Below are positions 10,157 to 50,952 of a stretch of DNA of 64,000 nucleotides, in pieces. Positions within the stretch are counted from its first letter, which is position 1. Every line of letters starts with the position of its first letter. The translations under genes and the position numbers were made by a program. The notes under the pieces are model-generated. The model was not told the origin of the DNA. It was given only the letters and a program-made list of their open reading frames with translations, and made no database searches. This DNA is from Candidatus Bipolaricaulota bacterium (lineage in GTDB: Bacteria > Patescibacteriota > Patescibacteriia > UBA11705 > DATKZF01): positions 359,089-423,088 of the forward strand of contig DATKZF010000003.1 in the NCBI GenBank assembly GCA_035528115.1. Direction: 5' to 3'.

Positions 10157-10170
10157 ATTATTTATTTAGC

Positions 10171-10415: not shown

Positions 10416-10422
10416 GGCCAGC

Positions 10423-10719: not shown

Positions 10720-10720
10720 T

Positions 10721-12756: not shown

Positions 12757-12888
12757 AGCGTCTGCAAAAAAGACCGTCATCTCGACCCCTCGACTGTGCT
12801 CGGGCAGGCCGAAGCGGAGAGATCTTTTCCTAACTGCCCGTCGTTGTCATCTCGACCGAAGCGGAGAGATCTTTTCCTAACAAAATAT
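12757..12888. mobile_element. MITE-like element E3 (two tandem copies of GTCATCTCGACCGAAGCGGAGAGATCTTTTCCTAAC)
   Basis: Same family as 10171-10415. The first unit is interrupted by a 22-nt insertion. Confidence 0.6.
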
Positions 12889-13176: not shown

Positions 13177-13245
13177 ATTCTTATTTGGAAAAGATTTCTC
13201 CGCTCCTCCTCACAAGCTCGTCGTCGGTCGAAATGACATGAATAA
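13177..13245. mobile_element. MITE-like element E4 (truncated left half)
   Basis: TTGGAAAAGATTTCTCCGCTCC...GGTCGAAATGACA matches the left arm of E2 and then diverges. Confidence 0.5.
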
Positions 13246-14237: not shown

Positions 14238-14326
14238 GCGGCCGCGGCCGGCGCGCAATCGCGCGCGTAGGAACAGGGCATTACCCTGTTCCTACATCGG
14301 CGACACATTCGTCGCCGCCGGCCGCT
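14238..14326. repeat. GC-rich multi-hairpin palindromic element, copy 3 (inside the rpmH-dnaA intergenic/origin region)
   Basis: Core palindrome GTAGGAACAGGGCATTACCCTGTTCCTAC at 14268-14296. Second hairpin GGCGACacattcGTCGCC shows compensatory changes relative to copies 1 and 2. Confidence 0.8.
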
Positions 14327-17319: not shown

Positions 17320-17370
17320 ACATGGAACACGTATCATGTATCACATAGCACATAACACAAACCCACCCGC

Positions 17371-19804: not shown

Positions 19805-20827
19805 ATGACAAAAACAGCTGACAAGGAAAACAGAATCGCCAGCCCGATCGCCAAAATCAATGAAAATGAGATGGAAACCTCCCTTCGTCCGCGCAAGCTG
19901 GACGAATATATCGGGCAGAACAAAATAAAGGAAAACGTTTTGATTTCAATTGAGGCGGCGAAAAAACGAAATGAGCCGCTGGAACATATTTTATTATTCG
20001 GCCCGCCCGGACTGGGAAAAACCACTTTGGCGCATGTGATCGCCAATGAAATGGGAACCAATATGCGCGTGACTTCCGGCCCGGCCATTGAAAAGGGCGG
20101 AGATTTGGCCGCCATTTTAACCAATCTGCAGCCGGGCGATATTTTATTTATCGACGAAATTCACCGGTTGAACAGATCTATTGAAGAAATATTGTACCCG
20201 GCCATGGAAGATTACGCTTTGGACATTGTCATCGGCAAGGGACCGTCCGCGCGCACTGTGCGGCTGGAGTTGCCGAAGTTCACCTTAATCGGCGCCACGA
20301 CCAAAATCAGCTGTCTGTCCGCCCCTCTTAGAGATCGTTTCGGCAATGTCTATCGTCTGGATTTTTATTCGCATGAAGATATTGAAAAAATAATTTTAAG
20401 ATCGGCCAGGGTTTTGAACTGCGATTTTTTTGACGAATGTTCAAAAGACATTGCGGCGCGTTCGCGCAAAACGCCTCGCGTGGCCAATCGTTTGTTAAAA
20501 CGCGTGCGCGATTTTGCGGAAGTGAAAAACAACGGCCGGATCGAACGACAAATCGCGGAGCAAGCTTTGAAAATGCTGGAAATAGACGAGCTGGGTCTCG
20601 ACGATGTGGACAGAAAATTGCTTTTAACGATTATTGATAAATTCGCCGGAGGTCCGGTGGGTTTGAATACCATTGCCGCGGCCACCTCCGAGGAAATGGA
20701 CGCCATTGAAGATGTTTTCGAGCCATTTTTGTTGCAACTCGGCTTTATCGATCGCACGCCGCGAGGCAGAATGGTGACCGAAAAGGCGTACAAGCATTTG
20801 AATGTGCCGTTTGCGCGTAACACATAG
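19805..20827 (+). CDS. ruvB: Holliday junction branch migration DNA helicase RuvB
   Basis: [22 protein letters not shown] Walker A and [10 protein letters not shown]. Confidence 0.95.
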
Positions 20828-20968
20828 CACGTAGCATGAATCATGGAGCATGAAGCAATTGGCAAGGTTTTTAGTCGAGTAGGTTATTAGATTGCTTTCC
20901 CTAAGAACCTAATAACCTAAAAATACTCAAAACTCATTACTCGTTACCGATTACAGAATTAATATTTT

Positions 20969-21931: not shown

Positions 21932-23590
21932 TCACCAAATTTTTTCCAAAGTGATTCCCGAATAATAGTATTTCAAAATTTGATCGTATTTTGCTCCTGT
22001 TTCGTCCGCCCTGTGATACGCGTCATACGCGTCAATGCCCACTCCGTGACCCCACAATTCCTTGCCTTCGCTGAACTGGCAATTTACGGAAACCAGATAA
22101 GGGACATCATTATTCCAAACTTCCTTGAAGCTTCTGGTGCGGCCGTCGCTTCTGGAAAAATAAGCGGCCACGATCGGTTTTCCTTCATAAGTGGCGACGA
22201 TGCCGTTGGTTTCGTCAATGGCTTTTTGCATGTCTTTCAGCCGCAAAGAAACATTGTAGCCTCGATAGACCTGATCGTAGGTGGCGTCCACATGATAATA
22301 TTCATCGGCGTGTTTGGTGGCCTTGGTGAAGTGATAATAAGCGTATGTTCTGGCGGCCACGGCCATTGTTTTCAAATATTCGATCGGCGAGCCGTTGCTT
22401 GTTTCAGCAATGCCGCGCAAATAATCTTCCATGGGCAGTTCATTGATAATCCATGTTCTGTCTTTTGAATCGTTGTGCCTGATTTCCAAGTCGCCCGAGA
22501 AAGTATTGTCGTTTAAGGCGGTGTTCCAGGCCGGTCTGTTTTCAAAACTGGTTATTTCAAAAATGCCGTTGTTGGTATTTTTCAAAATCAAATAGTTTGA
22601 AGTGGAAACGCTTTTGTCTGATTTAATATATGAATATTTGTTTGTCGAAGGATCAAATGTCGCGCTGAGTTTTTCATTGGCAGCGAAAGAAGCGATTGTA
22701 TTGTTGTTTGAGTCGAAAAGCTGCCAAGCTTTGGTGTTTTTTATTTCAAAGGCATTGTCCGAGTAAAACAGTCCCACTCTGATGCGCGGGCCGGTCGAAG
22801 CCATTTGAGGCAAGCAATTTGAATCCGCGTTTGTTGAAGAACTTAATGTATATGGACAATCGGTTCTATTATTTGGCGAGGCAGTCGGCAATTCCGCGGT
22901 TTCGCTCGGCGCGGGTGTATTTATGGGCGCGGGTTTTTCCACGGCAAAATCTCTCGGATCCGGATTAGCCGGATTATCCGTGACATACATTGATATGGAA
23001 ATATCTCCGCCTTTTATCATGACATTATCGTCAGCGAGCACAAATGTGCCGTCATAATCTCCGAAGGCGGGCGGCGCTTGCACCGCGAATCTAAAAGTCG
23101 CCACTTGTCCCGGAGCGATACTGTCCTCCATCATGGCGCCCGGCAAAAAAGGGTCCGGCCAGAATTCGTGTCTGAATTTCAATCCCGATGTTTTTGATTT
23201 CAAATAAACATGACCTTTTTTCCAAACATTGTCTCCGGTATTTTTGAACTTGGCTTCAAAGGTAAATCCCTTATTGGGCACAATTTTCACTCTCGCATGG
23301 GATTGCTCAAGAAATTGAGAAGCATTGCTATTGGTCTGCGTCGCAGCCAGGGCCACGGTGACGTGAAATGGGTTTAATTTTTGGGGCAGATCCAGGTTAG
23401 AGTTTTTATTATAAACCGTGTTTTCAATGTGGCGCAGTCCGCAGCTGGTCACAACCAAGATTAAAAAAGCGAAAGTCAAATTCACTAAAAGATTCGGTTT
23501 TTTATCCGGTTGAAGTCTATAATTACGGCAATACGTTTGATTTTTGTTTTCGGGAAGCATATTTTTGATTACCTGAATACAGTATATCAT
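21932..23590 (-). CDS. SpoIID/LytB domain protein (peptidoglycan-remodelling)
   Basis: C-terminal region TMAVAARTYAYYH...GHGVGIDAYDAYHRA matches the SpoIID/LytB signature. N-terminal signal/TM region. Confidence 0.7.
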   Translation of the reverse strand: MIYCIQVIKNMLPENKNQTYCRNYRLQPDKKPNLLVNLTFAFLILVVTSCGLRHIENTVYNKNSNLDLPQKLNPFHVTVALAATQTNSNASQFLEQSHARVKIVPNKGFTFEAKFKNTGDNVWKKGHVYLKSKTSGLKFRHEFWPDPFLPGAMMEDSIAPGQVATFRFAVQAPPAFGDYDGTFVLADDNVMIKGGDISISMYVTDNPANPDPRDFAVEKPAPINTPAPSETAELPTASPNNRTDCPYTLSSSTNADSNCLPQMASTGPRIRVGLFYSDNAFEIKNTKAWQLFDSNNNTIASFAANEKLSATFDPSTNKYSYIKSDKSVSTSNYLILKNTNNGIFEITSFENRPAWNTALNDNTFSGDLEIRHNDSKDRTWIINELPMEDYLRGIAETSNGSPIEYLKTMAVAARTYAYYHFTKATKHADEYYHVDATYDQVYRGYNVSLRLKDMQKAIDETNGIVATYEGKPIVAAYFSRSDGRTRSFKEVWNNDVPYLVSVNCQFSEGKELWGHGVGIDAYDAYHRADETGAKYDQILKYYYSGITLEKIW

Positions 23591-23652: not shown

Positions 23653-23681
23653 TTGACAATGTTATGAGGGCGTGCTAATAT
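23653..23681 (+). promoter_or_regulatory. sigma70-like promoter (TTGACA, 17 nt, TAATAT)
   Basis: TTGACA at 23653-23658 and TAATAT at 23676-23681, upstream of the acidic-protein minigene. Confidence 0.45.
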
Positions 23682-23770: not shown

Positions 23771-24157
23771 ATGTCTGACGGGGTTGAGGAAGGGGTTTAT
23801 ATCTGGGAGGAAATTCCCGAGGACGAGGAGGACATCGGGGAACTCTACGTTCCCACGGTCGAGCTTTCCGCCGAAGAGAAGAAGTTAGCGCGTCTGCTGG
23901 CCGAGGCCGACGCAATCAGCATGCCGGCCATGGTAGAGGCTTTCGAGTCCCTCGAGGCCTACTTGGAGGACGAAGGCTTCGAGCCTCAGCCGACTCTCGA
24001 GGAGTACCGCTTCTGGGGACAGAAGGTCAAGGCTAGGACTGACAAGGCGCATAGGCTTTGGGGCGAGTTTTTGAGCGAAGAAGGGCGGAGGTTCGCTGAG
24101 GCGGACGCCGAGGACATTGAGCTCCAAGCGGCGGCCTGTGAGTCACTGGAGGAGTAA
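23771..24157 (+). CDS. hypothetical highly acidic protein (GC-rich minigene)
   Basis: ORF 23741..24157 trimmed to the ATG at 23771, preceded by AAGGAGG. About 58% GC. Shares the motif EEYRFWGQK with the HTH protein 28957..29316 (EEYRVWGKR). Confidence 0.45.
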   Translation: MSDGVEEGVYIWEEIPEDEEDIGELYVPTVELSAEEKKLARLLAEADAISMPAMVEAFESLEAYLEDEGFEPQPTLEEYRFWGQKVKARTDKAHRLWGEFLSEEGRRFAEADAEDIELQAAACESLEE

Positions 24158-24316
24158 TTGGAGGCCGAGGGGTTCGAGGGCTGCTTCGAAGAGGATCTCG
24201 AGAACTAGTCGTGTGGTTACAGTTTGTCAAAGGAAAGGAGGAAGTTGACAGGCGGATTCATCTCAATGAGTCCGCTGTTTTATTTTAAATTAAAAAAATC
24301 CGCGGCGTGGGGCGGA

Positions 24317-24583
24317 TTAGAGTTGTCGCGGTCGCCTTTTTTCAATCACGGGCAAGTTGATTCTTTGACGCAATTTGGATCCGCATTGGCGACAAAACGA
24401 GTCTTCAATATGGACGATGGGTCGGTAGCATTCCGAGCATTTTGGCGCGCTATCGCCATTTATTGCGGGCAGTGACATGCCGCATTGGCGGCAAAATCGG
24501 TCTTGATGATGGACGAGAGGTTTTTGACAATGAGGGCACTTTGTCCGACGCGGTTTTCTCGGCGTCCTCTCTCTCTTTCCCAT
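24317..24583 (-). CDS. double zinc-ribbon protein (internal duplication)
   Basis: Two CxxC...CxxC units (CPHCQKPLVHHQDRFCRQCG and CSECYRPIVHIEDSFCRQCG). The DNA shows the corresponding roughly 75-bp direct repeat. The start is uncertain, and the upstream part of ORF 24317..24697 is probably not coding. Confidence 0.4.
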   Translation of the reverse strand: MGKRERTPRKPRRTKCPHCQKPLVHHQDRFCRQCGMSLPAINGDSAPKCSECYRPIVHIEDSFCRQCGSKLRQRINLPVIEKRRPRQL

Positions 24584-24873: not shown

Positions 24874-25878
24874 TTACTTATCCTGATCGACCGCTTCTTC
24901 CAAACGTTTGGCTTCCTTATCAAAATCACTGATTATTTTTTTGCTTTTCTCCGCGTGATATTTTTCGTATTCTTTGTTGGCTAGCCGCTCAGCCTTTTCG
25001 GCGCTGATTTTTCCGGCGTTGGTTAAAATCTCTTTTTCGCTTAATTTTAAAAAGTCATCCAGTTTATTTATCCAGTTTTCCATGGACATGGCACGGTCGT
25101 TGGTGGCTTGCAGTTCCGCGAAATCCAAATATAGCGAAACGATTAAATTTAACTGTTTCAATTCAGGTTCATTCAAATAGTTTTTGGCCACGTGAGCATC
25201 GGCGACCGTGAGATAGTTGCCCTTAAAATTTGTTAAACCCATATTCGGTTTCTCGGCGTTCGCGCGTTGCGCTATTAATTCAGCGGCGGTATTACCATGG
25301 ACGGCAAAGTGTATTTTATTTTGCACTGTCGCGAAAAATTTTTTGGTCAACGCGTCATCTTTGCGGTAATCAATGCTGGTGGCGTAGACATCTGTGATTT
25401 TTTGATAAAAATTCCGTTCGCTGGCGCGGATGTCACGGATTCGTTGCAAGAGTTCTTCAAAATACCTCGCGCGTCCACCGCCCTGCTTTAGGCGTTCATC
25501 GTCCAGCGCGTAGCCTTTTATAATATATTCCCGCAAGCGTTGAGTCGCCCAAATGCGGAATTGAGTGCCGCGGAGCGAATTTATCCTATATCCTACAGAA
25601 ATAATCGCGTCAAGGTTATAAATCTTTATAGGGCGGTTGACTTGCCTATTACCCTCAAGTTGAACTGCCGAGGATTCCTCGGATGTTGCTTTTTCCTCTA
25701 ATTCACGATCCAGATAGATATTTTTTAGATGAAGGGCTATATTGTCTATGCTGCAATCAAAAAGCTCGGCCATCTGCTTTTGCGATAGCCACACTGTTTC
25801 TTTTTCCATTTTAACCTCCACCTTGGTTTTTCCGTCATCGGTTTGATAGAGGATGATTTGGGATGAGTTATGTCCCAT
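24874..25878 (-). CDS. RhuM family (virulence-associated) protein
   Basis: QIILYQTDDGKTKVEV...WLSQKQMAELF...NLDAIISVGYRINSLRGTQFRIWATQRLREYIIKGYALDDERLK is a strong match to the RhuM family signature as I recall it. Confidence 0.75.
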   Translation of the reverse strand: MGHNSSQIILYQTDDGKTKVEVKMEKETVWLSQKQMAELFDCSIDNIALHLKNIYLDRELEEKATSEESSAVQLEGNRQVNRPIKIYNLDAIISVGYRINSLRGTQFRIWATQRLREYIIKGYALDDERLKQGGGRARYFEELLQRIRDIRASERNFYQKITDVYATSIDYRKDDALTKKFFATVQNKIHFAVHGNTAAELIAQRANAEKPNMGLTNFKGNYLTVADAHVAKNYLNEPELKQLNLIVSLYLDFAELQATNDRAMSMENWINKLDDFLKLSEKEILTNAGKISAEKAERLANKEYEKYHAEKSKKIISDFDKEAKRLEEAVDQDK

Positions 25879-27577: not shown

Positions 27578-27610
27578 TAATATAAGGAAAAGTCGGTAAA
27601 AGGCTGCGTA

Positions 27611-27638
27611 TTGACAGATTTTATAAAAATGCTATACT
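27611..27638 (+). promoter_or_regulatory. sigma70-like promoter (TTGACA, 16 nt, TATACT)
   Basis: Read directly from the sequence. It lies upstream of the leader ORF and the ZAS-like gene. Confidence 0.5.
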
Positions 27639-27707
27639 AAAAGCTCGAAAATATCGAGGAAGACGTCGACAGTTAGTGTGCTTCAGCACGACAAGGAGGA
27701 TAGAGCC

Positions 27708-27758
27708 ATGAACTGCCGGCAAGCAACGGATATCCTGCTCGATGAAAACGGAAGATGA
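27708..27758 (+). CDS. 16-aa leader peptide (MNCRQATDILLDENGR) translationally coupled to the downstream gene
   Basis: Strong SD AAGGAGGA 7 nt upstream of the ATG. Its TGA stop overlaps the downstream start codon as ATGA. Confidence 0.35.
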   Translation: MNCRQATDILLDENGR

Positions 27759-28105
27759 ACATGCCGAAGAAAAGCAAACCGGCTTCAAGTGCCCCTGCCC
27801 CGGATTTTGTGGAAGCATTTGCGGCCATTCGCGAAAAGCTTGGCTGCACTGATGAGAAATTGGGGCAAATCATCGCATTTGCGCTGGTCAGAGATCGTCG
27901 AATTGCGGCATTTTTCTCGACCACGCGCGATGGCGCGAAGCAATTCCGTGACATCGCGAGGCACATGAGGGATTGCCCCTGTTGCAGTCTCGCGCTTCAT
28001 CTGATCATGTCCAGCGTGTACGAGGTGCGCCTGGAAAACAAAAAAAAGGCGAAGACAAAACCTTCGCCTCGCAAGCAGTCAGTACCGACCAAAAAGGCCC
28101 AGTAG
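27755..28105 (+). CDS. putative zinc-binding anti-sigma-factor-like protein (HxxxCxxC ZAS motif)
   Basis: ARHMRDCPCCSLALHL contains H-x3-C-x2-C. Lys/Pro-rich basic tail. GC-rich. Confidence 0.35.
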   Translation: MNMPKKSKPASSAPAPDFVEAFAAIREKLGCTDEKLGQIIAFALVRDRRIAAFFSTTRDGAKQFRDIARHMRDCPCCSLALHLIMSSVYEVRLENKKKAKTKPSPRKQSVPTKKAQ

Positions 28106-28111
28106 CCTAAG

Positions 28112-28162
28112 CTCTCATGAGCCATTCGGCAACGCGGATCCAACATCGGGTCCGCTTTTTTA
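28112..28162 (+). terminator. shared terminator-like repeat R1 (GCCATTCGGCAACGCGGATCCAACATCGGGTCCGC plus T-tract)
   Basis: Near-identical copies at 29330-29395 and 29737-29780, each directly after a plus-strand minigene. Confidence 0.5.
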
Positions 28163-28213
28163 TTTTAAAATTTTTCTGAAATTGAAAAATGACCCTTGTG
28201 AAGAGCCACCTTG

Positions 28214-28753
28214 TTAAAAGTCTTGATCCGGAATCAGGCCGGCAATGCCACCGTTCACTAAACGGCGATGACTGATCTGAACCAGTGGAACCCGGCCCCC
28301 CTTAAATGTCGTGAAACCATGGCGTTGGGTTCTGTCCTCTATTGTCGCCACTCTGCTCCTAACTCGACGCAAATCGTCTTGCAGATCCTCCAACCGACCG
28401 TCAAGTTTCGAGAGATCCTTGCGGAGGCCGTCTTGTCCCTTTCTCACCTCTTCGCGCAGAGCGTCCTGACCCTGCTTCATCTTTCCCAGGTCGTCCGCAA
28501 GGGTTCCCACGCGGGCGTCGAGGTGATCCTGACCCTGCTTCATCTTTCCCAGGTCGTCCGCAAGGGTTCCCACGCGGGCGTCGAGGTGATCCTGACACTG
28601 CTTCATCTTTTCCAGGTCGTCCGCAAGGGTTCCCACGCGGGCGTCGAGGTGATCCTGACACTGCTTCACCTCCTTGCGGAGGGCGTCCTGGCCCGCCTTC
28701 ACTTCCTTGATACCTACTAGAATCTCACTTGTGTTGTCGAATTGCGTTTCCAT
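28214..28753 (-). CDS. coiled-coil protein with three tandem 21-aa repeats (QDHLDARVGTLADDLGKMKQG)
   Basis: Three copies of a 63-nt tandem DNA repeat at about 28440-28640. SD GAGAGGGA lies before the ATG. Architecture resembles the AT-rich ORF 62816..63163. The plus-strand ORF 28268..28720 is its antisense image. Confidence 0.5.
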   Translation of the reverse strand: METQFDNTSEILVGIKEVKAGQDALRKEVKQCQDHLDARVGTLADDLEKMKQCQDHLDARVGTLADDLGKMKQGQDHLDARVGTLADDLGKMKQGQDALREEVRKGQDGLRKDLSKLDGRLEDLQDDLRRVRSRVATIEDRTQRHGFTTFKGGRVPLVQISHRRLVNGGIAGLIPDQDF

Positions 28754-28869
28754 TGTTCAATCCCTCTCGAATTGGGGTGATGACACAAAACAAACAATTT
28801 AAAAATATCATTTATAAATACCAAAGGCAATAGGAAGAAACAACGGAGCTATTTTAAAATAAGCTGGCA

Positions 28870-28898
28870 TTGACAGTTTTTATGGAAAATGATATAAT
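28870..28898 (+). promoter_or_regulatory. sigma70 consensus promoter (TTGACA, 17 nt, TATAAT)
   Basis: Perfect hexamers at 28870-28875 and 28893-28898. Confidence 0.55.
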
Positions 28899-28956
28899 TA
28901 AATGTTGTTTTTCCACAGATTTTGACCTGTTTTCAACCAAGTAAAGGGGGCCTGCC

Positions 28957-29316
28957 ATGAGTGATGAGAGATTCAGCGCAGATGAGTTGGAGGAGTACAG
29001 AGTCTGGGGAAAGAGAATGGCGCGCAGGGCAAGGCAAGCCGACGCGCTGTATGCGCAAGTTGGGGCGGAAGTCAGCGCAAAGGTGGAAGCTGCCGAGCGC
29101 GCGCCAACACTAGAGGCGGTTCACTTCCTTGTCAGTCATTTCAAGCTGACGCCGAAGGAGTGGATGTACCTGTACTGGCGCTACGCTATGCGCCTTCATC
29201 ACAAGGACGTGGCTGTAAAGATGGAAGTGTCCCGCCCGCGCGTGTCACAGCTCGGCCGGGCAGTGCGAGAGAAGATGGGTCTGGAAGGTCTGAGGCTCCT
29301 CGGACGCAACAGCTGA
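28957..29316 (+). CDS. sigma-70 region 4-like helix-turn-helix DNA-binding protein
   Basis: KDVAVKMEVSRPRVSQLGRAVREKMGL resembles the sigma region 4.2 / LuxR-type HTH. The protein is too short for a full ECF sigma factor. SD AAAGGGGG before the ATG. Confidence 0.4.
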   Translation: MSDERFSADELEEYRVWGKRMARRARQADALYAQVGAEVSAKVEAAERAPTLEAVHFLVSHFKLTPKEWMYLYWRYAMRLHHKDVAVKMEVSRPRVSQLGRAVREKMGLEGLRLLGRNS

Positions 29317-29329
29317 CACATTTCACGGT

Positions 29330-29395
29330 CATTTCCGCCGACAGCTCTCATGAGCCATTCGGCAACGCGGATCCAACATCGGGTCCGCTTTTTGA
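29330..29395 (+). terminator. shared terminator-like repeat R2
   Basis: CTCTCATGAGCCATTCGGCAACGCGGATCCAACATCGGGTCCGC plus TTTTTG. The first 50 nt are identical to R1. Confidence 0.5.
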
Positions 29396-29412
29396 TTGAA
29401 TAAAGACTTTAA

Positions 29413-29440
29413 TTGACAATTAGGACGCTTTTATTATACT
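29413..29440 (+). promoter_or_regulatory. sigma70-like promoter (TTGACA, 16 nt, TATACT)
   Basis: Read directly from the sequence. Confidence 0.5.
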
Positions 29441-29486
29441 GAAAGCGAGACCGAGAAAATCTCGGCTAACAAAACAAGAAGGAGGA

Positions 29487-29720
29487 ATGGCGATGAAAGC
29501 GATATGGTATTTAATTGTGTATTTTATTCTACAAGCGTTTTTCACGGGCTTGCTGTATCTTCTTGTGGAGAAAATGTTATCACCGCATAAGATGGACTGG
29601 CCCAGCGAATACGGATGCTACATGTTTCTCCTGATCGTCATCGCAGGTGAACTTGCGACGTTGGGAGGTCTTCTCGTCGTGCATTTCGGAGGTCTTTTTA
29701 GGGATGAGGAGAAGTCTTAA
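29487..29720 (+). CDS. small two-helix membrane protein
   Basis: SD AAGGAGGA before the ATG. 77 aa, hydrophobic. Followed by repeat R3 at 29737-29780. Confidence 0.4.
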   Translation: MAMKAIWYLIVYFILQAFFTGLLYLLVEKMLSPHKMDWPSEYGCYMFLLIVIAGELATLGGLLVVHFGGLFRDEEKS

Positions 29721-29771
29721 AGAAACTACCAGTAACGGTATGCGGATCCAACATCGGGTCCGCTTTTCTTA

Positions 29772-30443
29772 TTATAAAATTTTGGTAGACTCGACTGATT
29801 TGGCTTCCTCGCGTTCTTTAAGCAGATAAATACCAAGATACGACAGCGGCGTGTAAAGCGCGCCCATGGCCACTTTGTACAGCCACCAAGTGATGATGAT
29901 GCTGATCAGGGTGCGAGTCGGATATATGCCCGCGAAAGCGATAATCATGAAAATCGTCGAGTCCAGCAATTGCGACCAAATGTTGGATAAAAGAGACCGC
30001 AACCAAAAAGCCTTTACTCCCAATTTTTCCCGGAAAAAGAAAAATGACAGCACGTCTTGATATTCGGCTATTAAAAAGGCGGTCAGCGACGCGACGCTCA
30101 TGCGAATGGACAGTCCGAAAATTTGATTATAGCCTTGCCTCGCCCATTCCCCATCCGCTGACCAAGGCATGGCCAGTGAGATAAATGAGTAGGCTATGAA
30201 CAAGGCCGCGCTGATGAATCCGGCTAATACAAAGAATTTGGCAAGGCGCTTGCCGAAAACTTCTCCGATGACGTCGGTCATTAAAAATACTACCGGGAAG
30301 GAAAACACGGCCACTGACAGATGCGAGCCGAAAATGAACGGCATCATTTTCAGACCGAGAGTATTGGCCGCAAAAAGCGAGGTGAGATAGATGGTCAACG
30401 CTATAATCAGTTTTTTGAATGATTTTTTGGTGAGATGAATCAT
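29772..30443 (-). CDS. yhhQ: queuosine precursor transporter, YhhQ/VUT family (DUF165)
   Basis: FLMTDVIGEVFG and SQLLDSTIFMIIAF match the family's conserved D/E and Q..DS motifs. Six or more TM helices. Confidence 0.6.
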   Translation of the reverse strand: MIHLTKKSFKKLIIALTIYLTSLFAANTLGLKMMPFIFGSHLSVAVFSFPVVFLMTDVIGEVFGKRLAKFFVLAGFISAALFIAYSFISLAMPWSADGEWARQGYNQIFGLSIRMSVASLTAFLIAEYQDVLSFFFFREKLGVKAFWLRSLLSNIWSQLLDSTIFMIIAFAGIYPTRTLISIIITWWLYKVAMGALYTPLSYLGIYLLKEREEAKSVESTKIL

Positions 30444-30578
30444 ATGGTATTTTTAATTAATAAAAAAACCGCCCGATAAGGCGGGAGTAAATTTCGAAAA
30501 CACCCCGTCCTTATCGGCATAAAAGGCGGGCGTAAATAAATCCTGACCAGGTTTTTATTTTGTTATTGTGGAGCATGT

Positions 30579-30840
30579 TTAAAATTTGGTTGGATGTCCA
30601 TATTTGATCAAATTTTCTTTTTTAATTTTGCTCCAACGTTTTATTTGGTTTTCTCGCTGCATAGCTTCTCTTAATGTATTATATTCTTCAAAGTAAATGA
30701 TTTTTACAGGTCTTCTATATTTTGTATATTTTGCGCCTTTGCCTTCATTGTGTCTTTTTTCTCTTGCTTGAATGTTTAAGCGAGATCCGGTATATAGGGA
30801 GTTATCATTACATCGCGCTATATACATGAAGTGCTTCATT
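30579..30840 (-). CDS. GIY-YIG nuclease superfamily protein (third paralog)
   Basis: MKHFMYIARCNDNSLYTGSRLNIQAREKRHNEG...REAMQRENQIKRW. ORF 30579..31082 trimmed to the ATG at 30838-30840. The upstream part is GC-rich repeat sequence, not coding. Confidence 0.6.
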
Positions 30841-31157
30841 GGGATAAGTAAAATTTTTTTAAGTGCCCCTCGACTTCGCTCGGGACATTCGACTCGTCTG
30901 GTGGTGGAACACCATGAGCGAGTCCGAGATTTCGAGGACGAGTCGAATGGTGGAGCCGAGTAGAGGAAGTTAGAACTTTTTTCGTCGCCGGAGCGCGCAA
31001 TACTGCCGATCCTGGCCGGGTACCTGCAGAGTACCACGACCGCACTGCTCGAGGATGTGCGAGAATATGACCTCGAGCACATGGCGAGAGTTCAGCATCC
31101 GAAGCAGCTCTGTCCAAACTCCTTGCCAGTTCGTAATTGGCCACGACGCAGTATGTA

Positions 31158-31186
31158 TTGACAGCAGATCCTATTAGTGCTAGGAT
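31158..31186 (+). promoter_or_regulatory. sigma70-like promoter (TTGACA, 17 nt, TAGGAT) inside the island
   Basis: TTGACA at 31158-31163. The -10 is imperfect. Confidence 0.3.
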
Positions 31187-31262
31187 ACCATATCCAGCCG
31201 CATCTTTCCCTCCCTTGCGTGCCCACCGAATTCCGGCAGGCAGACATCAGAGGGGAAGGGGG

Positions 31263-31514
31263 ATGGCTATGGGTCTTGCAAAGCATTTGCTACTCTGCGT
31301 AACGCTATTCCTAGCGTTTATGGCATTTTGGTATCTAACGATGGAAGGGTGGGCTAACGGCCAAGAAGGAGTCCAGTCGTGTGGTGGTGGATGCGGACGA
31401 ATTCTGTTTCTTCTGGAGGTCCTCTTGGCACAGACAGGCTCACTTTTGACGATGTGCATACTGCACTGGAGTGGACTGCCTCGTGGCAAGAGGCGAGATT
31501 CTCAGCAGTCCTAG
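31263..31514 (+). CDS. hypothetical small membrane protein (island cargo)
   Basis: SD GAAGGGGGA before the ATG. One or two hydrophobic helices and a CGGGCG motif. Trimmed from ORF 31137..31514. Confidence 0.3.
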   Translation: MAMGLAKHLLLCVTLFLAFMAFWYLTMEGWANGQEGVQSCGGGCGRILFLLEVLLAQTGSLLTMCILHWSGLPRGKRRDSQQS

Positions 31515-31856
31515 TTCCGAAGTTGTTCTGGCGGAACCGATCATCCGTGTTCCGCCTTTTTGTTTTCCCGCAAGAAACTCATGCGGCTTGATGCAATAGA
31601 TGACTCTCGGGTCATCGAACAGATGGGTCGGAAACGCCATTCCGACCCATTTCCATTGAACAGCGCTCATCGACAGCGAAGAAGACCGTCAATTCTTGCG
31701 CCGTCGTAGCCCTGCACGTAGTCGGACCCAATCACAGCGAACGGCAAACTGAGGTTGTCGGACCCGAGGATCCTTGATAGTCGTCGCGCCGACTCAGGAT
31801 CGCGCTCCACGTCGCGGCGACGATAGAATTGGAGCACGGTTGCCCTTCGTCCGCAA

Positions 31857-32360
31857 CTACGCGGAAATGTCTGCCAATTCCAATGACATGCTCGCCGCAA
31901 GATCGCCTGGACTGAATCTCATGCCACAGTACTCATCGCCACCGGCTCCGGTGACCAGCGCTCTCCGAAGAACGTTCCTATCAATGATCCTCCGATCACA
32001 AGACGATACAGCCACCGGCGGGACTCCACCAATACGAAACTGGGTCACCGACTCGATCTGCTGGGGCGTGGCGAATCGAAGTTTCTTGACGCCGACCAGT
32101 TCCGCGACCCTGCGAACGTCCAGTCGGTCAGATCCTAGTATTATGCAAGCGATGAATACATCCTCCCTTGGAGCATGCAAGACGAGTGTCTTGATGATGT
32201 TTTCCGATGCGGTTTCGAGGGCGGCAGAGGCCTGCGAGGTCGTCTTTCCAGACTGCTCGTGCATCATGAACTGGGCCCTCAGACCTACGCAACTTGCCAG
32301 TCTCTTCGCGCGGTCGATGGCTCCGGTGTCCAACTGGCGCTCCTTTCCAATCAGGTTGGC
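31857..32360 (-). CDS. YbaK/ProX-like aminoacyl-tRNA deacylase domain protein (island cargo)
   Basis: IKTLVLHAP...RLDVRRVAELVGVKKLRFATPQQIESVTQFRIGGVPPVA parallels the YbaK KTLV...GGVSP pattern. The 5' end is uncertain: no in-frame ATG at the expected position, so a GTG/TTG start is possible. The ORF-track entry extends to 32642. Confidence 0.45.
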   Translation of the reverse strand, partial: ANLIGKERQLDTGAIDRAKRLASCVGLRAQFMMHEQSGKTTSQASAALETASENIIKTLVLHAPREDVFIACIILGSDRLDVRRVAELVGVKKLRFATPQQIESVTQFRIGGVPPVAVSSCDRRIIDRNVLRRALVTGAGGDEYCGMRFSPGDLAASMSLELADISA

Positions 32361-32934
32361 GTGACAGACTTTGGGCGCACGTCTGAACGGTGGTAGGGGC
32401 GTGACGGACGGGGAGGTCGTGCTTGCACCCACAGCGGCACCCTCGAGGAACGAGGTCAGCGATTGGCCTGTGCCATGCCTCACCTGGCGTTGGGAACATG
32501 TCCGGCCGTCCGTTTCCGCGGGCACGCGGTGTACTCCTCTGCTGGTGTTGTTCATACTACATGCTTGGCCGCCGGTCGTCTTGGCCGCCGGCATTTGTGT
32601 TTCACTCATGCTAATTGTACGGAGATTGCGCATGCTTGTCAACCAGGCATCTCACTGAATTCCTCAAGCCGGCCTGCGTGGGTTCAGCGCAAACGGGGCC
32701 GTTGACAGCCTTCCAGTTCGCTGCTACGAAGACCACAGAGATCTCTGCGCCCGTGCAAAATGGATGGCCCGGTAGCTGCAGGATCGAACTGACGCCCGTC
32801 TTCACGACCTCTCGGGTCTTCCGTTCGCAACGGCCTCGCTCGGTCGCACCGGCCACGCGGAGCGAATGAGACAAGGTCGCAACCATCGCGACGGCATAAG
32901 TGTAGAATATATATACTACGTGAAGATAGATGTT

Positions 32935-32980
32935 AGAGCGAGAGAGATAGACACCTAGGAATGTCTATCTCTCTCGCTCT
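32935..32980. repeat. perfect 19-bp-arm palindrome AGAGCGAGAGAGATAGACA-cctaggaa-TGTCTATCTCTCTCGCTCT
   Basis: Arms at 32935-32953 and 32962-32980 are exact reverse complements. The 8-nt spacer contains CCTAGG. It lies about 350 bp upstream of the serine recombinase gene. Confidence 0.85.
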
Positions 32981-32985
32981 CTATC

Positions 32986-33297
32986 TTGAGTACTCTTGGA
33001 CGAGCCGTGTGCGACCGGGACCGCCTGCCGCTGCATGCTTTCGGTGTCTCCGCCACCCCCTGCCCGGACCAACCCAGGCGCGATACGCTTGTGGTGTTCA
33101 ACTACATGCCATTGACACAAGATGACATCGAGGATCTCAAGGGGCTGCTCAGGGCCGAGTACGGCGAGGAGGTGCCGCACGACGAGGCCTGGGACGTTGG
33201 CCTTTCTCTAGTCGAGCTGTGTCGAGTCGCTCTCCGGCCAGCCCCCGCGGCAAGGGAGTCAGACCCGACTGTGGATAACTCGCAGCTTGCCAAATAG
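32986..33297 (+). CDS. hypothetical small acidic protein upstream of the recombinase (possible accessory/directionality factor)
   Basis: ORF in GC-rich DNA. The segment MPLTQDDIEDLKGLLRAEYGEEVPHDEAWDVGLSLVEL looks protein-like. Low confidence because GC-rich DNA yields many spurious ORFs. Confidence 0.25.
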   Translation: MSTLGRAVCDRDRLPLHAFGVSATPCPDQPRRDTLVVFNYMPLTQDDIEDLKGLLRAEYGEEVPHDEAWDVGLSLVELCRVALRPAPAARESDPTVDNSQLAK

Positions 33298-33337
33298 CCT
33301 GGCCAGCTCTACGATCCACAATGAACGCTCGCCACCT

Positions 33338-34954
33338 ATGAAGCATTGCTATATTTACGCTAGAAAATCGTCGGAGTCCGAGGACCGACAGGTTCTGTCC
33401 ATCGACTCGCAGGTCAGTGAGCTCGAGCAGCTGGCCGTCCGGCTGGGACTGCCGGTCACCCGGGTGTTTTCGGAGTCGAAGTCCGCCAAGACTCCCGGGA
33501 GGCCGGTTTTCACCGACATGCTAGAACGTCTTCGTAATCCAGAGGGGAGCGTGGTGCTGTGTTGGAAACTCGATCGGCTGGCCCGAAACCCGCTTGATGG
33601 CGGGGCAGTGATTTGGGCGGTCGAGGAGCGCCAGATCGGGGAGATCGTCACTCCGGGTCGGACCTTCCGCAACACCGCCGACGACAAGTTCTGGATGCAA
33701 CTCGAATTCGGGATGGCCAAGAAGTACGTGGACGACTTGTCTGACAACATCAAGCGCGGAAACAGGGCCAAGCTCCAGCGCGGCCAGATCCCGGGGCAGG
33801 TCCCCCTCGGCTACACCAAGGACCCCTGCACAGGCGACACGATCCCCGATCCGGAACGGTTCGAGTTGGTTCGGCGCATTTGGCAGCGGCTTGTTGATGG
33901 CCACCGGCCGGCAGAGATCCTGAGGGTCGCCTCGAGCGACTGGGGTCTGCGAACGCGAGGTTCCAAGAGGACCGCGAGCGGGCCGCTATCGCCGTCGTAC
34001 TTCTACCGGTTGCTCTCGAATCCGTTTTACGCCGGCGTGGTTCAGCGTGCGGGCCAGGTCTACGTCGGTGCCCACCAGGCGATGGTCAGCCAACATGAGT
34101 TCGACCTGGCCCAGAGGATGTTGGCGGGCAGGTCCAACTCGAGATCTCAGCGCCACGAGCACACCTACGCCGGGCTACTGCGCTGCGGGGTGTGTGGCCG
34201 CATGTTCACCGGAGAGAGCCACACCAACCGCTACGGATCCACGTACGTGTACTACCGGTGCACTCGAAAGCGGCTGGGTAGCAGGGTGTGCCCCCAGCCC
34301 TACGTGCCCGAGAAGGTCATCGACGAGCAGGTGCTCGACTACCTCGGAAGGCTCTCAGTGCCGAGGCAGTTTGTGGACTGGGCCTGCAAGCGCCTCGAGC
34401 GCCTCGCAGCAGAGGATCAAGCGACCGAGCAGGTGGCGCAGTCGTCGATCGAGAAGGGCCTCGCTGCGGCCCAACGCAAACTCGAGAACCTGACGCAGCT
34501 GCGATTGTCCGAGATGATTGGTGACGAAGAATTCGTACTAGAGCGAGCCAGACTGCTGGACGAGGTCGCCGGTTTCAAGGCCCGCCTGGCCGCGCCCTCG
34601 ACCACGGGTCCCGCGTGGCTGCAGCCCACGAAGGAGGCGCTCGCCCTCGCCTCAAGGGCCGAAAATCTGTATCGCAGTGGACTGAAGGACGACAAACGGA
34701 CCATCCTGCGGGCCATCGGGTCGAACTTCTTCATCAGGGACCGGATTGTGCTAATCCAAGCCAAGAAACCGTTTCGCATTCTGGCCGCCGCCCGCGATTC
34801 CTCCGAGCCCGAGCCACCGCGGGTCGAACCCCGGGATTTTGGCTCAGCCAAACAAAAAAACGAGCCATCGAGTGGTCGTTTTCTCCTGTGGTGGACCCTA
34901 AGGGATTCGAACCCTTGGCCTCCTCCATGCCATGGAGGCGCTCTAGCCAACTGA
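33338..34954 (+). CDS. large serine recombinase (resolvase/invertase catalytic domain, recombinase domain and zinc-ribbon)
   Basis: N-terminal YIYARKSSESEDRQVLSIDSQ carries the catalytic Ser motif. The central region matches the recombinase domain. Zinc ribbon CGVCGRMFTG...YYRCTRKRLGSRVCPQP. Start trimmed to the ATG at 33338. The 3' end overlaps tRNA-Ala, so the true stop is uncertain. Confidence 0.85.
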   Translation: MKHCYIYARKSSESEDRQVLSIDSQVSELEQLAVRLGLPVTRVFSESKSAKTPGRPVFTDMLERLRNPEGSVVLCWKLDRLARNPLDGGAVIWAVEERQIGEIVTPGRTFRNTADDKFWMQLEFGMAKKYVDDLSDNIKRGNRAKLQRGQIPGQVPLGYTKDPCTGDTIPDPERFELVRRIWQRLVDGHRPAEILRVASSDWGLRTRGSKRTASGPLSPSYFYRLLSNPFYAGVVQRAGQVYVGAHQAMVSQHEFDLAQRMLAGRSNSRSQRHEHTYAGLLRCGVCGRMFTGESHTNRYGSTYVYYRCTRKRLGSRVCPQPYVPEKVIDEQVLDYLGRLSVPRQFVDWACKRLERLAAEDQATEQVAQSSIEKGLAAAQRKLENLTQLRLSEMIGDEEFVLERARLLDEVAGFKARLAAPSTTGPAWLQPTKEALALASRAENLYRSGLKDDKRTILRAIGSNFFIRDRIVLIQAKKPFRILAAARDSSEPEPPRVEPRDFGSAKQKNEPSSGRFLLWWTLRDSNPWPPPCHGGALAN

Positions 34955-34965
34955 GCTAAGGGCCC
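34889..34965 (-). tRNA. tRNA-Ala (anticodon GGC), G3:U70, CCA encoded
   Basis: Reverse complement GGGCCCTTAGCTCAGTTGGCTAGAGCGCCTCCATGGCATGGAGGAGGCCAAGGGTTCGAATCCCTTAGGGTCCACCA. Confidence 0.85.
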
Positions 34966-36640: not shown

Positions 36641-38260
36641 TTAATAGCTGAGATAAGGCATTGATTGCGGGTCGCAAAAGTTTGCGGCATCTCGGGAGGA
36701 GACATTTAAGATTGAAGAGACTTTTTCCGCGCAACCTTGTAGGAACGAATCATACGTCATAGTAGATAAGGTTTCTATCATAACATCGATAAAATCGGCT
36801 ATTTCCGGATTGGTTTCCGTTTCTTTAATGTCTTTTAACAATTGCGCACAGGCCGTTGTGTGGTCGGTGGAATAATAGTAATAACGATAGCTTTGAAACG
36901 CGCTCAACAAAATATCCAATTTATTTTTATTCGAAGCGCCCGAGTAAGCGTCTTTCAAAAAATCGGCGACATGTTTTCCTTCGCGAGAGTCGGAGATTTT
37001 AGAAGAAATGAAATATCTATCCAAATGATTCACAAGTTCGGCCTGCCCTTTTATTTTGTTGTAATGACTTTTCACGGACAACGCATTCAAATCAATGCCG
37101 AATGAAAAAAGGCAGGACAAAACAATCATGACCAAAATGGCGATCAGATTGCTGAGCTTGAGACCTTCCAGATATTGATTGGTTTTTAAATCGGATAAAC
37201 GGTAGATCGCGAAAACGCAATATAAAACAGTCATAAGCGCCAAGAACGCCAAGCTGAACAAAACGAGGAATCTGTCTGGCGTGATGCCGTATTGATTGAT
37301 GCGGGAAACGATGGCAAAAAGTCCGACCGCCAGCATGACTAAACTTTCAAATAACAAAGCGATCGAGGAAATCGACAGCGCCCGATGCGTTTTTTTGCCA
37401 GCTTCTTCGTGTTTTAAAAATATGCCGGTGAAATAAAGAACAACGATGTTGAACGAGGCCAGCGCCGCGAAAAGCACCGAGGTTTGCCCGGTTTTAAGAA
37501 TCACTGAAAAGCCGCTCGGCAAAAGAATGATTATGTAAAGAAGCAAAAGGCCTGACATCACAAACGAGATAACCATGAATATTCTGGAAAAGAGTTTTAA
37601 TATTTTGGTGTAAGGCTCTTGATCAATAACGCTTTTTTTCAAGTCATAGCAGAGAGAAAAAGCGAAGAAGCCGATGGTTGAATACACCACTGAAATAATC
37701 AAGACGATCAGTTTTTCGGGCACGGAGAATTTGATCAAAAAAAGCAAACCACTGAAAAGTCCGATAACGATAAGCGCGGCCAGGCCGAAGATGCCGGCGA
37801 TAACGACCGTTTCAAAAACTTTATTGATGAATTGATAAAAGGCCTCCGGAATTTTTTTCCAAGACTTTTCGCAAAAAGACAGGAGCAAGCCGATCAGCGC
37901 GGTGAAGAAAACGGCCTTCATGGCCAGATAAACCAACAAAGGCGGAGTTTGATCGAAAGAAAAGAAATACAGCGCGGCTTGAAAAGCGGCGAACAGCCCG
38001 ATTGACGCGCAGGCCAGTCCTTTGTTTTTTATTTTTTTGTACGACAACAGGAAATATACGAAGAAAGCGGCGAACAGCAAAATTTCCAAAAGCATAACCA
38101 GCGATTTGCCCACTGCCGGTTCACTCAATGAGCTGAATTTTTCGGAAACGCTGAGCAGATAAATGCCCCAGACTCCAAGACCGGTCAGGACGCCGATGAT
38201 GATGGCGCGAAGCGAATTTGTCCAATCGAATGAAGTTTTTGCGTTGGTGTTTTTTTGCAT
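36641..38260 (-). CDS. hypothetical polytopic membrane protein
   Basis: 539 aa, at least 10 TM helices. No family recognised. Confidence 0.45.
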   Translation of the reverse strand: MQKNTNAKTSFDWTNSLRAIIIGVLTGLGVWGIYLLSVSEKFSSLSEPAVGKSLVMLLEILLFAAFFVYFLLSYKKIKNKGLACASIGLFAAFQAALYFFSFDQTPPLLVYLAMKAVFFTALIGLLLSFCEKSWKKIPEAFYQFINKVFETVVIAGIFGLAALIVIGLFSGLLFLIKFSVPEKLIVLIISVVYSTIGFFAFSLCYDLKKSVIDQEPYTKILKLFSRIFMVISFVMSGLLLLYIIILLPSGFSVILKTGQTSVLFAALASFNIVVLYFTGIFLKHEEAGKKTHRALSISSIALLFESLVMLAVGLFAIVSRINQYGITPDRFLVLFSLAFLALMTVLYCVFAIYRLSDLKTNQYLEGLKLSNLIAILVMIVLSCLFSFGIDLNALSVKSHYNKIKGQAELVNHLDRYFISSKISDSREGKHVADFLKDAYSGASNKNKLDILLSAFQSYRYYYYSTDHTTACAQLLKDIKETETNPEIADFIDVMIETLSTMTYDSFLQGCAEKVSSILNVSSRDAANFCDPQSMPYLSY

Positions 38261-38308
38261 ACGTTACAAATATTGCGGCTATTAAGATAGCCTTTGTTTT
38301 ATATTTTA

Positions 38309-38446
38309 ATTGTTACGAATTACAATATTCTATTTAGCTTTTAGGTTATTTGTTACGAATTACAATCTGCTAAAGCATAAAGCCATAGAGGAATGTACTT
38401 CGTAACAATCGATTGGAAGCCAAGTGGAATATTGTAATTCGTAACG
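38309..38446. repeat. L-family element L1: inverted pair of units with 40-bp periodicity built on TTGTTACGAATTACAA
   Basis: Forward units at 38311 and 38351. Reverse-complement units follow (…ATTGTAATTCGTAACG at 38432). Forms an imperfect long hairpin of about 65 bp per arm. Confidence 0.75.
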
Positions 38447-38476
38447 ATACTCCATGCTAACATCATATCACCTGCG

Positions 38477-39916: not shown

Positions 39917-40010
39917 TGCTTATAAAAAAATAAGGGTCTTATCCATGGCCTTTGTTTTTTATTTGGGTTTCGTTAAATGTTAAATATTGTTCCCTTGTTT
40001 CATTGCTTCA

Positions 40011-40207
40011 TTGTTACGAATTACAAGATTCTAATTAGCTTTTAGGTTATTTGTTGCAAATTACAATCGACTATTTGGCTTTCAGGTTATCTGTTACGCC
40101 TACCTACCTGCCTGCCGGCAGGAATTACATTTATAGCTATATGCCATAGAATCTTGTAATTCGTAACAACCGCTTCGAAGCCAAATGAAATATTGTAATT
40201 CGTAACG
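40011..40207. repeat. L-family element L2 (three forward units, a GC-rich insert with palindrome CCTGCCGGCAGG, two inverted units)
   Basis: Unit starts at 40012, 40052, 40092 and, reverse-complemented, at 40152 and 40192. Exact 40-bp spacing. Confidence 0.75.
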
Positions 40208-40229
40208 CTAATCCAGCCCCTTCGGGACT

Positions 40230-41741: not shown

Positions 41742-41759
41742 AGTTTATTATTTGAATCA

Positions 41760-41933
41760 TTGTTACGAATTACATTCACTAAAAAGCTCTTTATTTGTAT
41801 TGTTACGAAGTACAAGATTCCATTTGGCCTACGGACGAATATTACAAATTACATTCACCTATAGCCTTAAGCCTGAGAATCTTGTAATTCGTAACAAATA
41901 ACCTGAAAGCTAAATAGAATATTGTAATACGTA
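41760..41933. repeat. L-family element L3
   Basis: Forward units at 41761 and 41801. Inverted units at 41881 and 41921. Right arm GATTGTAATTCGTAACAAATAACCTGAAAGCTAAATAGAATATTGTAATACGTAAC. Confidence 0.75.
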
Positions 41934-41976
41934 ACATTATTGTATCAATTTATCATCTGCGCCGGATAACCGCAAA

Positions 41977-50873: not shown

Positions 50874-50952
50874 ATCACGTATCATGTAACACACAACACA
50901 TAACATGAAACATGAATCATGGAGCACGTATCACATATCACGTATCATGAAG

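Follow-up and report, generated by a model that had tools for sequence, protein, structure and literature searches.

Layout and setting of the islet

Within a 64,000-nt stretch of bacterial chromosome (positions 359,089 to 423,088 of contig DATKZF010000003.1, assembly GCA_035528115.1; hereafter the window, whose own coordinates are used throughout), an initial annotation had drawn attention to a group of small genes at 27600-29780, three of which each have a promoter of their own and a common terminator, and had read it as an acquired regulatory module. The content of this span proved to be real, and its layout of promoter, minigene and common terminator is statistically non-random, but the family is not confined there: a fifth unit lies at 23.65-24.28 kb. 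The genes may well belong to an accessory islet that is specific to the lineage and spans about 6 kb (23.65-29.77 kb) of a chromosome of the Patescibacteria, or candidate phyla radiation (CPR), in which case the span 27600-29780 would be its right-hand half.

The islet is bordered by a SpoIID-like gene (21932-23590) and by the gene for a conserved Vut_1 transporter (29772-30443). Between these lie, in order, o128 (+), ZnR88 (-), RhuM (-), two lipoprotein genes (-), a leader open reading frame (ORF) with P116 (+), CC179 (-), HTH119 (+) and TM75 (+). Judged by their signals, the units are short and monocistronic, each having an extended -10 sigma-70 promoter, a Shine-Dalgarno (SD) site and an intrinsic terminator of its own. 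The small genes and the repeat within one of them are as follows.

23771-24157, plus strand: o128, a very acidic orphan ORF (ORFan) of 128 amino acids (isoelectric point, pI, 4.1), found by tblastn of HTH119; SD site AAAGGAGG
24317-24583, minus strand: ZnR88, an 88-amino-acid double zinc-ribbon ORF (PF12773, E=9e-12), converging on o128
27708-27758, plus strand: leader ORF of 16 codons (MNCRQATDILLDENGR, then stop), whose TGA overlaps the ATG of P116 at 27755 (ATGA)
27755-28105, plus strand: P116, a basic (pI 10.1), predicted all-helical ORFan of 116 amino acids, with H70-x3-C74-x2-C77
28214-28753, minus strand: CC179, a coiled-coil ORFan of 179 amino acids
28464-28668, minus strand: in-frame tandem repeat within CC179, 63 nt x 3.3 (21-amino-acid units; Tandem Repeats Finder, 98% matches)
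28957-29316, plus strand: HTH119, a basic protein of 119 amino acids with a sigma-70 region-4 helix-turn-helix (HTH) at residues 63-106
29493-29720, plus strand: TM75, a 75-amino-acid product with two hydrophobic segments and host-like composition

The bordering Vut_1 gene has up to 83% amino-acid identity to genes of dozens of metagenome-assembled genomes (MAGs) of Patescibacteria, and the labels of the 80 best Vut_1 loci are mostly of Patescibacteria/CPR lineages, the remainder being generic or clearly automatic. Because the nearest matches of Vut_1 are in Patescibacteria MAGs, we treat the host as a CPR bacterium. The NCBI records (HUT22502-HUT22508) label this MAG Candidatus Bipolaricaulota, and Vut_1, RuvB and bPH match Patescibacteria most closely; the label appears to be wrong. 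No homologues of the islet ORFans were found near Vut_1 in the 80 Patescibacteria loci, and in these relatives Vut_1 is followed by larger co-directional genes. The species representatives were too distant to yield a pair with and without the island, partial gene order being kept only in locus L022.

Promoters of the islet units

The three near-perfect plus-strand sigma-70 promoters of the initial annotation were all recovered, matching the consensus at 11, 12 and 11 of 12 positions. Together with two further sites, they are:

27611-27638, plus strand: U1 promoter, TTGACA-16-TATACT with TG (promoter scan, 11/12)
28870-28898, plus strand: U3 promoter, TTGACA-17-TATAAT with TG (promoter scan, 12/12), back-to-back with the CC179 upstream region
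29413-29440, plus strand: U4 promoter, TTGACA-16-TATACT (promoter scan, 11/12)
23653-23681, plus strand: U0 promoter, TTGACA-17-TAATAT with TG (10/12), outside the span first described
28830-28802, minus strand: candidate promoter of CC179, TTGCCT-17-TATTTT with TG (8/12, found by eye, under the scan threshold)

A stable 5' stem-loop (29448-29467) lies downstream of the U4 promoter. A foreign character of these promoters did not survive a count of the same type across the window, where TTGACA-N14-TGNTATAMT (with at most one mismatch) has 8 matches against 0.01 expected. A near-consensus extended -10 promoter is the normal style of this host, and since the pattern recurs window-wide, the islet promoters are not a sign of foreign origin.

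A terminator hairpin copied within the islet

A 22-nt hairpin, GCGGATCCAACATCGGGTCCGC, recurs without any change at 28134, 29367 and 29742, and was found in none of 100 shuffles with up to 3 mismatches allowed, 0 being expected by chance. The hairpin and its surroundings form four 3' ends:

28110-28164, plus strand: T1, copy 1 of a 55-nt repeat of the 3' untranslated region (UTR), with the hairpin at 28134-28155 plus a T-run
29343-29397, plus strand: T2, copy 2 of the 55-nt 3'-UTR repeat, with the hairpin at 29367-29388
29742-29763, plus strand: T3, the 22-nt hairpin followed by TTTT, in convergent orientation to the end of Vut_1
24251-24276, plus strand: T0, a diverged copy of the hairpin, GCGGATTCAT-CTCA-ATGAGTCCGC, then GTTTTATTTTAAA

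T1, T2 and T3 score as terminators, with T-runs after each and folding z-scores of -5.2, -4.2 and -4.7, and because every one of the islet hairpins has a T-run they are predicted to function as intrinsic terminators of their own genes. The same repeat of roughly 50 nt had been said to end all three units of the right-hand half. This holds for two of them, whose 55-nt copies (28110-28164 and 29343-29397) are 98% identical, but not for the third: T3 has in common with the repeat only a core of hairpin plus TTTT (26 nt; 62% identity over 55 nt). Beyond the hairpin, T1 and T2 have 24 further nt in common (AGCTCTCATGAGCCATTCGGCAAC). A search for additional copies, suggested at the outset and run on the 64-kb window, was productive: GCGGAT-N5-16-GTCCGC has 4 matches against 0.11 expected, the fourth being the diverged hairpin at 24252-24275. 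This T0 hairpin reads GCGGATTCATCTCAATGAGTCCGC then GTTTTATTTTAAA, with arms, G·U position and tail as in T1. Since four terminators copy one hairpin, two of them with 24 more nt, the 3' ends appear to have been propagated locally, by duplication or gene conversion.

The arm pattern of the hairpin is far sparser elsewhere: some 1.3 Mb of other CPR loci contain 3 occurrences, the 6 kb of the islet 4. The hairpin itself gave 0 matches in each of GTDB species genomes, IMG/VR and JGI metagenome contigs. The Logan short-read unitig assembly breaks exactly at both 55-nt copies, as a genuine repeat would be expected to cause. Furthermore, neighbouring genes in this genome habitually re-use a hairpin, as can be seen from several other locally repeated intergenic hairpin families in the window.

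Composition and distribution of the islet genes

The span 27600-29780 had been described as about 55% GC; its measured content is 50.1%, against 44.5% for the window. The excess lies in particular ORFs: P116 (0.53), CC179 (0.57) and HTH119 (0.59) are outliers relative to 33 host ORFs (0.438 ± 0.035; z = 2.7-4.4), and o128 has a GC content of 0.59 with 0.74 at third codon positions (GC3). Across the GC-rich islet ORFs GC3 is 0.62-0.74, against 0.51 ± 0.05 in the host. TM75 (0.44) resembles the host, as does the intergenic DNA (0.35-0.37). The claim of a foreign composition is thus upheld for three ORFs of the original span, which are compatible with acquisition, but not for the intergenic DNA or the membrane-protein gene.

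Searches for relatives returned almost nothing. Among 5.8 billion indexed proteins, P116 and HTH119 matched only themselves, and CC179 only itself and a shorter allele; an exhaustive phmmer search of HTH119 against 1.84 billion representatives likewise found only HTH119. No relatives of HTH119 were found in JGI metagenomes, and none of HTH119, P116 or o128 in 50,697 phage records, 72,556 plasmids and IMG/VR, so that the phage or plasmid origin first suggested finds no homologues in these collections.

P116 and its leader

The 16-codon leader said to overlap the next ORF by ATGA is present at 27708-27758. A strong SD site (AAGGAGG, 27694-27700) serves this leader and not the 116-amino-acid ORF. 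P116, seemingly a small, basic, helical Cys/His protein, would be translated by coupling to the upstream ORF. Its start in the NCBI record is M3, giving 114 amino acids.

Such details bear on whether the islet ORFs are coding at all. It is very unlikely that some or all of them are non-coding, with the units yielding small RNAs or the 16-amino-acid peptide alone and the long ORFs being by-products of GC-rich DNA. The complete lack of homologues would agree with such an account, as would the long ORFs that GC-rich DNA gives here on both strands (m97, m71, p150), the dispute among gene callers over P116 and the strong SD site that belongs to the 16-codon ORF. However, HTH119 has a significant domain match, CC179 combines a clean heptad-type composition with in-frame 63-nt repeats, and HTH119 and TM75 are preceded by strong SD sites at the correct spacing. 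In addition, each ORF fills its promoter-terminator interval, the 5' UTR of P116 has no excess structure, and the islet UTRs contain no Rfam family, no match appearing even at E<0.3.

P116 carries the motif HxxxCxxC (H70, C74, C77), on the basis of which it had been proposed as a zinc anti-sigma (ZAS) factor. This is the sole occurrence in the 47,887 open-frame residues of the window, and the motif arises in 0.19% of shuffles; one per window of this size is rare, yet not beyond chance. No zf-HC2 domain (PF13490) was detected in P116, Pfam giving no match even at E<=10 when this check, part of the original proposal, was run. Neither Pfam, NCBIfam, PHROGs nor PADLOC places the protein in a family, and its PDB sequence matches at E<=10 include no ZAS or anti-sigma chains. 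In RslA the fourth zinc ligand lies 25 residues upstream of the motif His (H25/H50) (PMC2877774); the nearest upstream Cys or His of P116 is C31, 39 residues before H70. A Foldseek search with the AlphaFold 2 model of P116 found nothing at E<=0.001, the model being a weak one (predicted local distance difference test, pLDDT, 60.7). Nor is there a sigma factor next to it. The assignment as a ZAS anti-sigma factor thus comes down to the motif.

A reading in which P116 is ZAS-like and binds region 4 of HTH119 or of the host sigma factor, with HTH119 acting as a region-4 mimic that competes for the beta-flap of RNA polymerase or for -35 elements, would make the cluster an acquired transcription-hijacking module. 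We regard this as highly improbable. The scarcity of the motif in the window counts for it, as does the P116 model, in which one helix would close with H70 and the following one open with C74/C77. The region 4.1-4.2 signature of HTH119 is genuine, and direct binding of ZAS domains to sigma region 4 is known from the sigma4L/RslA crystal structure (PMC2877774). The best PDB match of P116, a weak one (E=0.64), is to an RNA polymerase omega subunit. Against it stand the missing zf-HC2 and solved-ZAS matches, the misplaced upstream ligand, a low-confidence model without a fold match, the absence of a full sigma factor nearby, and a motif whose single occurrence is compatible with chance. Moreover, P116 and HTH119 are separate units, each with its own promoter and terminator and with an opposite-strand gene between them, and hence are predicted not to be co-transcribed. 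The proposed anti-sigma and region-4 mimic pair is not supported.

Two further identities for P116, and one match, were set aside. As an omega-like protein, which stays no more than a lead, it has only the PDB match just cited, to an actinobacterial omega and not significant, and no match to Pfam RNA_pol_Rpb6. As a ZAS pseudogene frameshifted between leader and P116 it fails because the leader frame after its stop is Trp/Arg-rich and off-frame, and the leader Cys lies about 85 residues from the motif. Finally, an IMG/VR match (L086; 62% over 21 amino acids) proved to be a seeded octamer with dissimilar flanks (p=0.15 and 0.41).

HTH119 and its acidic neighbour o128

The description of HTH119 as a protein with a region-4-like HTH and nothing else of a sigma factor stood up. 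Pfam Sigma70_r4 (PF04545) matches residues 63-106 just over threshold (E=1e-5; 25.4 bits against a cutoff of 24.1), Sigma70_r2 was not detected, and the N-terminal 62 residues have no Pfam match at E<=10. The NCBIfam sigma70-ECF profile aligns over positions 84-161 of 165, with TIGR02937 scoring 21.2, under its cutoff of 42.9, and the FliA/WhiG model aligns region 4. Since region 4 is present and region 2 was not detected, HTH119 is not a sigma factor.

Residues 1-47 of HTH119, an N-terminal, helical segment, align with residues 65-112 of o128 through a LEEYRxWG motif. The similarity has a pairwise E of 5e-5 and a window-wide E of 0.011, and a composition-preserving shuffle gives p ~1e-4. Through this common segment o128 may partner, titrate or antagonise HTH119.

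A more ambitious arrangement, to which we give the slimmest of chances, is a self-contained transcription-modulating set made of HTH119, its titrating acidic paralogue o128 and a zinc-binding P116 acting on region 4 or on RNA polymerase. P116 would then dock in a ZAS-like manner on region 4 or in an omega-like manner on RNA polymerase, the three genes all being driven by duplicated, plug-and-play promoters and terminators. If true, this would be a new way to re-wire RNA polymerase in organisms with very few regulators.

CC179, TM75, ZnR88 and a possible role in defence

The coiled-coil gene had been said to be built from three exact 63-nt tandem repeats. The repeats are there (period 63, 3.3 copies) but are not exact, being 99% and 95% identical to the reference copy. 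CC179 matches dozens of coiled-coil families and, weakly, the phrog_5553, XhlA and spanin profiles, matches that are compositional. A sister assembly has a 158-amino-acid allele with exactly one 21-amino-acid unit fewer, the remaining 20 kb being identical; the long form is present in 4 assemblies and the short form in 2. CC179 would thus be a coiled coil with a variable number of 21-residue repeats.

The small membrane protein was likewise found as described, with 75 or 77 residues and two hydrophobic segments; the SD site AAGGAGG favours the ATG at 29493 over that at 29487, and the product is probably a two-helix membrane peptide. ZnR88 is without annotation in any source and absent from the protein collection, and is equipped with a promoter-like site (24642-24614) and a terminator (24318-24297) of its own. 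None of P116, o128, ZnR88, CC179 and TM75 has Sigma70_r2 similarity.

Mid-islet, at 24874-25878 on the minus strand, lies the RhuM-family gene, for whose product PADLOC gives the candidate defence family PDC-S05 (E=4e-143). This raises the question of whether the small HTH, membrane and coiled-coil proteins are cargo of a defence island, forming an uncharacterised abortive-infection or toxin-antitoxin-like system beside RhuM. In favour of this, small ORFans abound in defence islands, which are found close to integration hotspots and tRNA genes, and the units here bring together a regulator, a peptide of the membrane and a protein with a variable repeat. PADLOC has no match, however, for P116, HTH119, TM75 or o128, and for CC179 only in the coiled-coil segments of SMC-like models; no enzymatic effector domain is present, and the units are, by their signals, transcribed independently and not as an operon. 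We consider a defence role quite unlikely.

Comparison with known systems

The closest parallel for HTH119 is the LtrA family, Sigma70_r4-only activators of late genes in Gram-positive siphophages, whose members have been proposed to bind DNA at a specific promoter and not to act as sigma factors (PMC3753634). HTH119 is similarly small, with sigma-70 region 4 as its sole recognisable similarity. Unlike LtrA proteins, it has no relatives in any phage collection, does not lie beside terS or morphogenesis genes, belongs to a CPR host, and has an N-terminal segment in common with a neighbouring acidic protein. LtrA-type activators are encoded by a phage or prophage, upstream of the terS/late operon, and the islet neighbourhood contains no phage genes. 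HTH119 is probably an LtrA-type or other region-4-only regulator in kind, and not a sequence member of any family.

The layout of the islet itself recalls morons, independent promoter-ORF-terminator units of deviant composition (PMC3594210): each islet ORF has its own sigma-70 promoter and factor-independent terminator, and several are compositionally deviant. The islet units differ from morons in that they do not lie between phage genes, their flanks being SpoIID-like, RhuM, lipoprotein and Vut_1 genes, and in that several stand side by side with one terminator sequence, with promoters and intergenic DNA that look host-derived.

These parallels are the strength of another reading, in which the islet is a degraded prophage or the remnant of an integrative element tied to the adjacent serine-recombinase island, its units being morons or regulatory and lysis genes: HTH119 an LtrA-like late activator, TM75 holin-like and CC179 XhlA/spanin-like. 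To the fit with the moron definition and the existence of small Sigma70_r4-only phage activators (PMC3594210, PMC3753634) can be added a GC-rich serine-recombinase element 0.7-5 kb away, the RhuM/PDC-S05 gene inside the islet, the weak matches of CC179 to phrog_5553, XhlA and spanin profiles, and a relative with an inovirus-like element that has a related recombinase beside Vut_1. Yet the islet has no structural, replication or packaging genes, and none of the phage, plasmid and IMG/VR records holds a homologue. The PHROG matches of P116, HTH119 and TM75 are insignificant and those of the coiled coil compositional. Furthermore, the intergenic DNA is AT-rich in the islet but GC-rich throughout the recombinase island, and a host gene, Vut_1, separates the two. 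We judge a prophage or element remnant unlikely, though not negligibly so.

Resemblances to other systems are partial. As in the ZAS anti-sigma factors RsrA, RslA and ChrR, P116 has its HxxxCxxC where two helices are predicted to meet, and the gene of a region-4 protein is close by, but P116 has no profile match, its fourth ligand is misplaced, no ECF sigma factor is co-transcribed, and the neighbour lacks region 2. The two-subunit sigma factor SigO-RsoA also includes a protein with region 4 but without region 2, encoded near other small proteins, as HTH119 is; its partner protein carries region 2, however, whereas no islet protein has Sigma70_r2 similarity, and the islet genes are not an operon. 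Like REP/BIME-like palindromes, the islet hairpin is short, GC-rich and repeated at the 3' ends of genes, in a genome with other such families, whereas only four copies of it are seen, within 6 kb, on one strand and each with a T-run. An integron cassette consists of a promoterless ORF followed by attC, beside an IntI tyrosine recombinase; such a cassette is ruled out by the promoter of each ORF, by a repeat that is a terminator hairpin and by the only recombinase nearby, which is of the large serine type. For each of the ZAS, sigma-factor, SigO-RsoA and integron-cassette memberships, at least one of the defining features tested is missing.

Neighbouring element and other repeats

Vut_1 (YhhQ-like; 29772-30443 in the window, loci L005-L084) is unusually conserved across different CPR classes, and very often has a tRNA gene on the same strand ahead of it in these loci. 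In the window, a GC-rich (0.51-0.66) insertion of about 4.4 kb (30450-34965) lies between tRNA-Ala(ggc) and Vut_1. It encodes a large serine recombinase (33338-34954, plus strand), the last 66 nt of which overlap the opposite-strand tRNA gene, and a YbaK/tRNA_edit-like ORF (31857-32594, minus strand), and has two stretches of 0.65-1 kb without a clean ORF. The insertion resembles a small integrated element, because in loci L008 and L065 tRNA-Ala(ggc) lies directly upstream of Vut_1. A direct repeat of tRNA-Ala of the att type, which would put the cluster within this element, was sought; no more than a 12-mer at 27428 came to light, which chance could explain and which was not used. Serine integrases need no long repeats.

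In a Candidatus Falkowbacteria genome (CP066698.1; locus L047, 11470-18600) the gene of a large serine recombinase that is related (28% identity) directly adjoins tRNA-Ser(tga) beside Vut_1; after it come genes for a rolling-circle Rep (REP_ORF2-G2P) and a Zot-like ATPase, and an ORF of 704 amino acids. This is apparently an integrated, inovirus-like element in a CPR genome.

Several other repeats were noted in the window. A GC-rich intergenic element of three hairpins, with the core GTAGGAACAGGGCAATGCCCTGTTCCTAC, occurs in three copies within 8.4 kb (5863-5920, 8940-8997 and 14267-14324) and looks like a REP-like family. Repeats containing TTGTTACGAATTACAA lie at 38250-38455, 39990-40215, 41750-41940 and 51000-51080; in this family, inverted arms of 140 nt (38311-38450 and 41797-41936, 82% complementary) flank two divergent genes, and the repeats could represent arrays of operators, or else a segment that is mobile or invertible. 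Heptamer-periodic repeats (…CATGAAN/CACGTAN…) stand right after gene ends at 17315-17357, 20819-20857, 50863-50968 and 60881-60923. A 300-nt repeat, 80% identical, is present at 10153-10838 and 12797-13188, and several families of 36-98-nt repeats surround the genes at 10.1-13.2 kb.

Discussion

The cluster first reported at 27600-29780 was a real observation, overstated in part, and its interpretation is supported in part. With even confidence, we read the locus as a tidy, ordinary islet of orphan genes with duplicated regulatory parts. The ORFs without families, four of them GC-rich (o128, P116, CC179 and HTH119), were most likely imported and now stand under signals of the local style. The terminator would have spread locally, by duplication or gene conversion, as other hairpin families of this genome do. 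HTH119 would be a free-standing, region-4-type DNA-binding regulator, as has been proposed for the phage LtrA family. Its likeliest target would be the divergent CC179 promoter, because the two are arranged back-to-back and this is the only weak, non-consensus promoter of the cluster.

Several points weigh against this picture of the islet. Its transcription units are deduced from sequence signals alone, and no operator-like motif common to the islet promoters was found. The hairpin may be more widespread than is seen in the 64 kb of this genome that were scanned. All six assemblies are identical save for repeat number, leaving the ORFs with neither homologues nor strain variants, and the difference in CC179 length is either a true polymorphism or an assembly collapse. 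For P116, the ENA gene caller chose two antisense ORFs instead, and the single-sequence AlphaFold 2 model, though all-helical, is of low confidence; that of HTH119 (pLDDT 51.6) is unusable.

If the conservative reading of an orphan-gene islet holds, the locus would illustrate cleanly, in nature, how orphan or foreign ORFs are installed by a minimal-genome symbiont, each being given a consensus promoter of the host and a terminator copied from elsewhere in the islet. As such it opens no long-standing question, being a curiosity and not a new system, and its interest to studies of how ORFans and regulatory parts evolve is modest. To our knowledge, very few regulators are known in Patescibacteria. 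A stand-alone region-4 protein, together with an acidic neighbour that has its N-terminal segment in common, provides a lead for the study of transcription control in this group.

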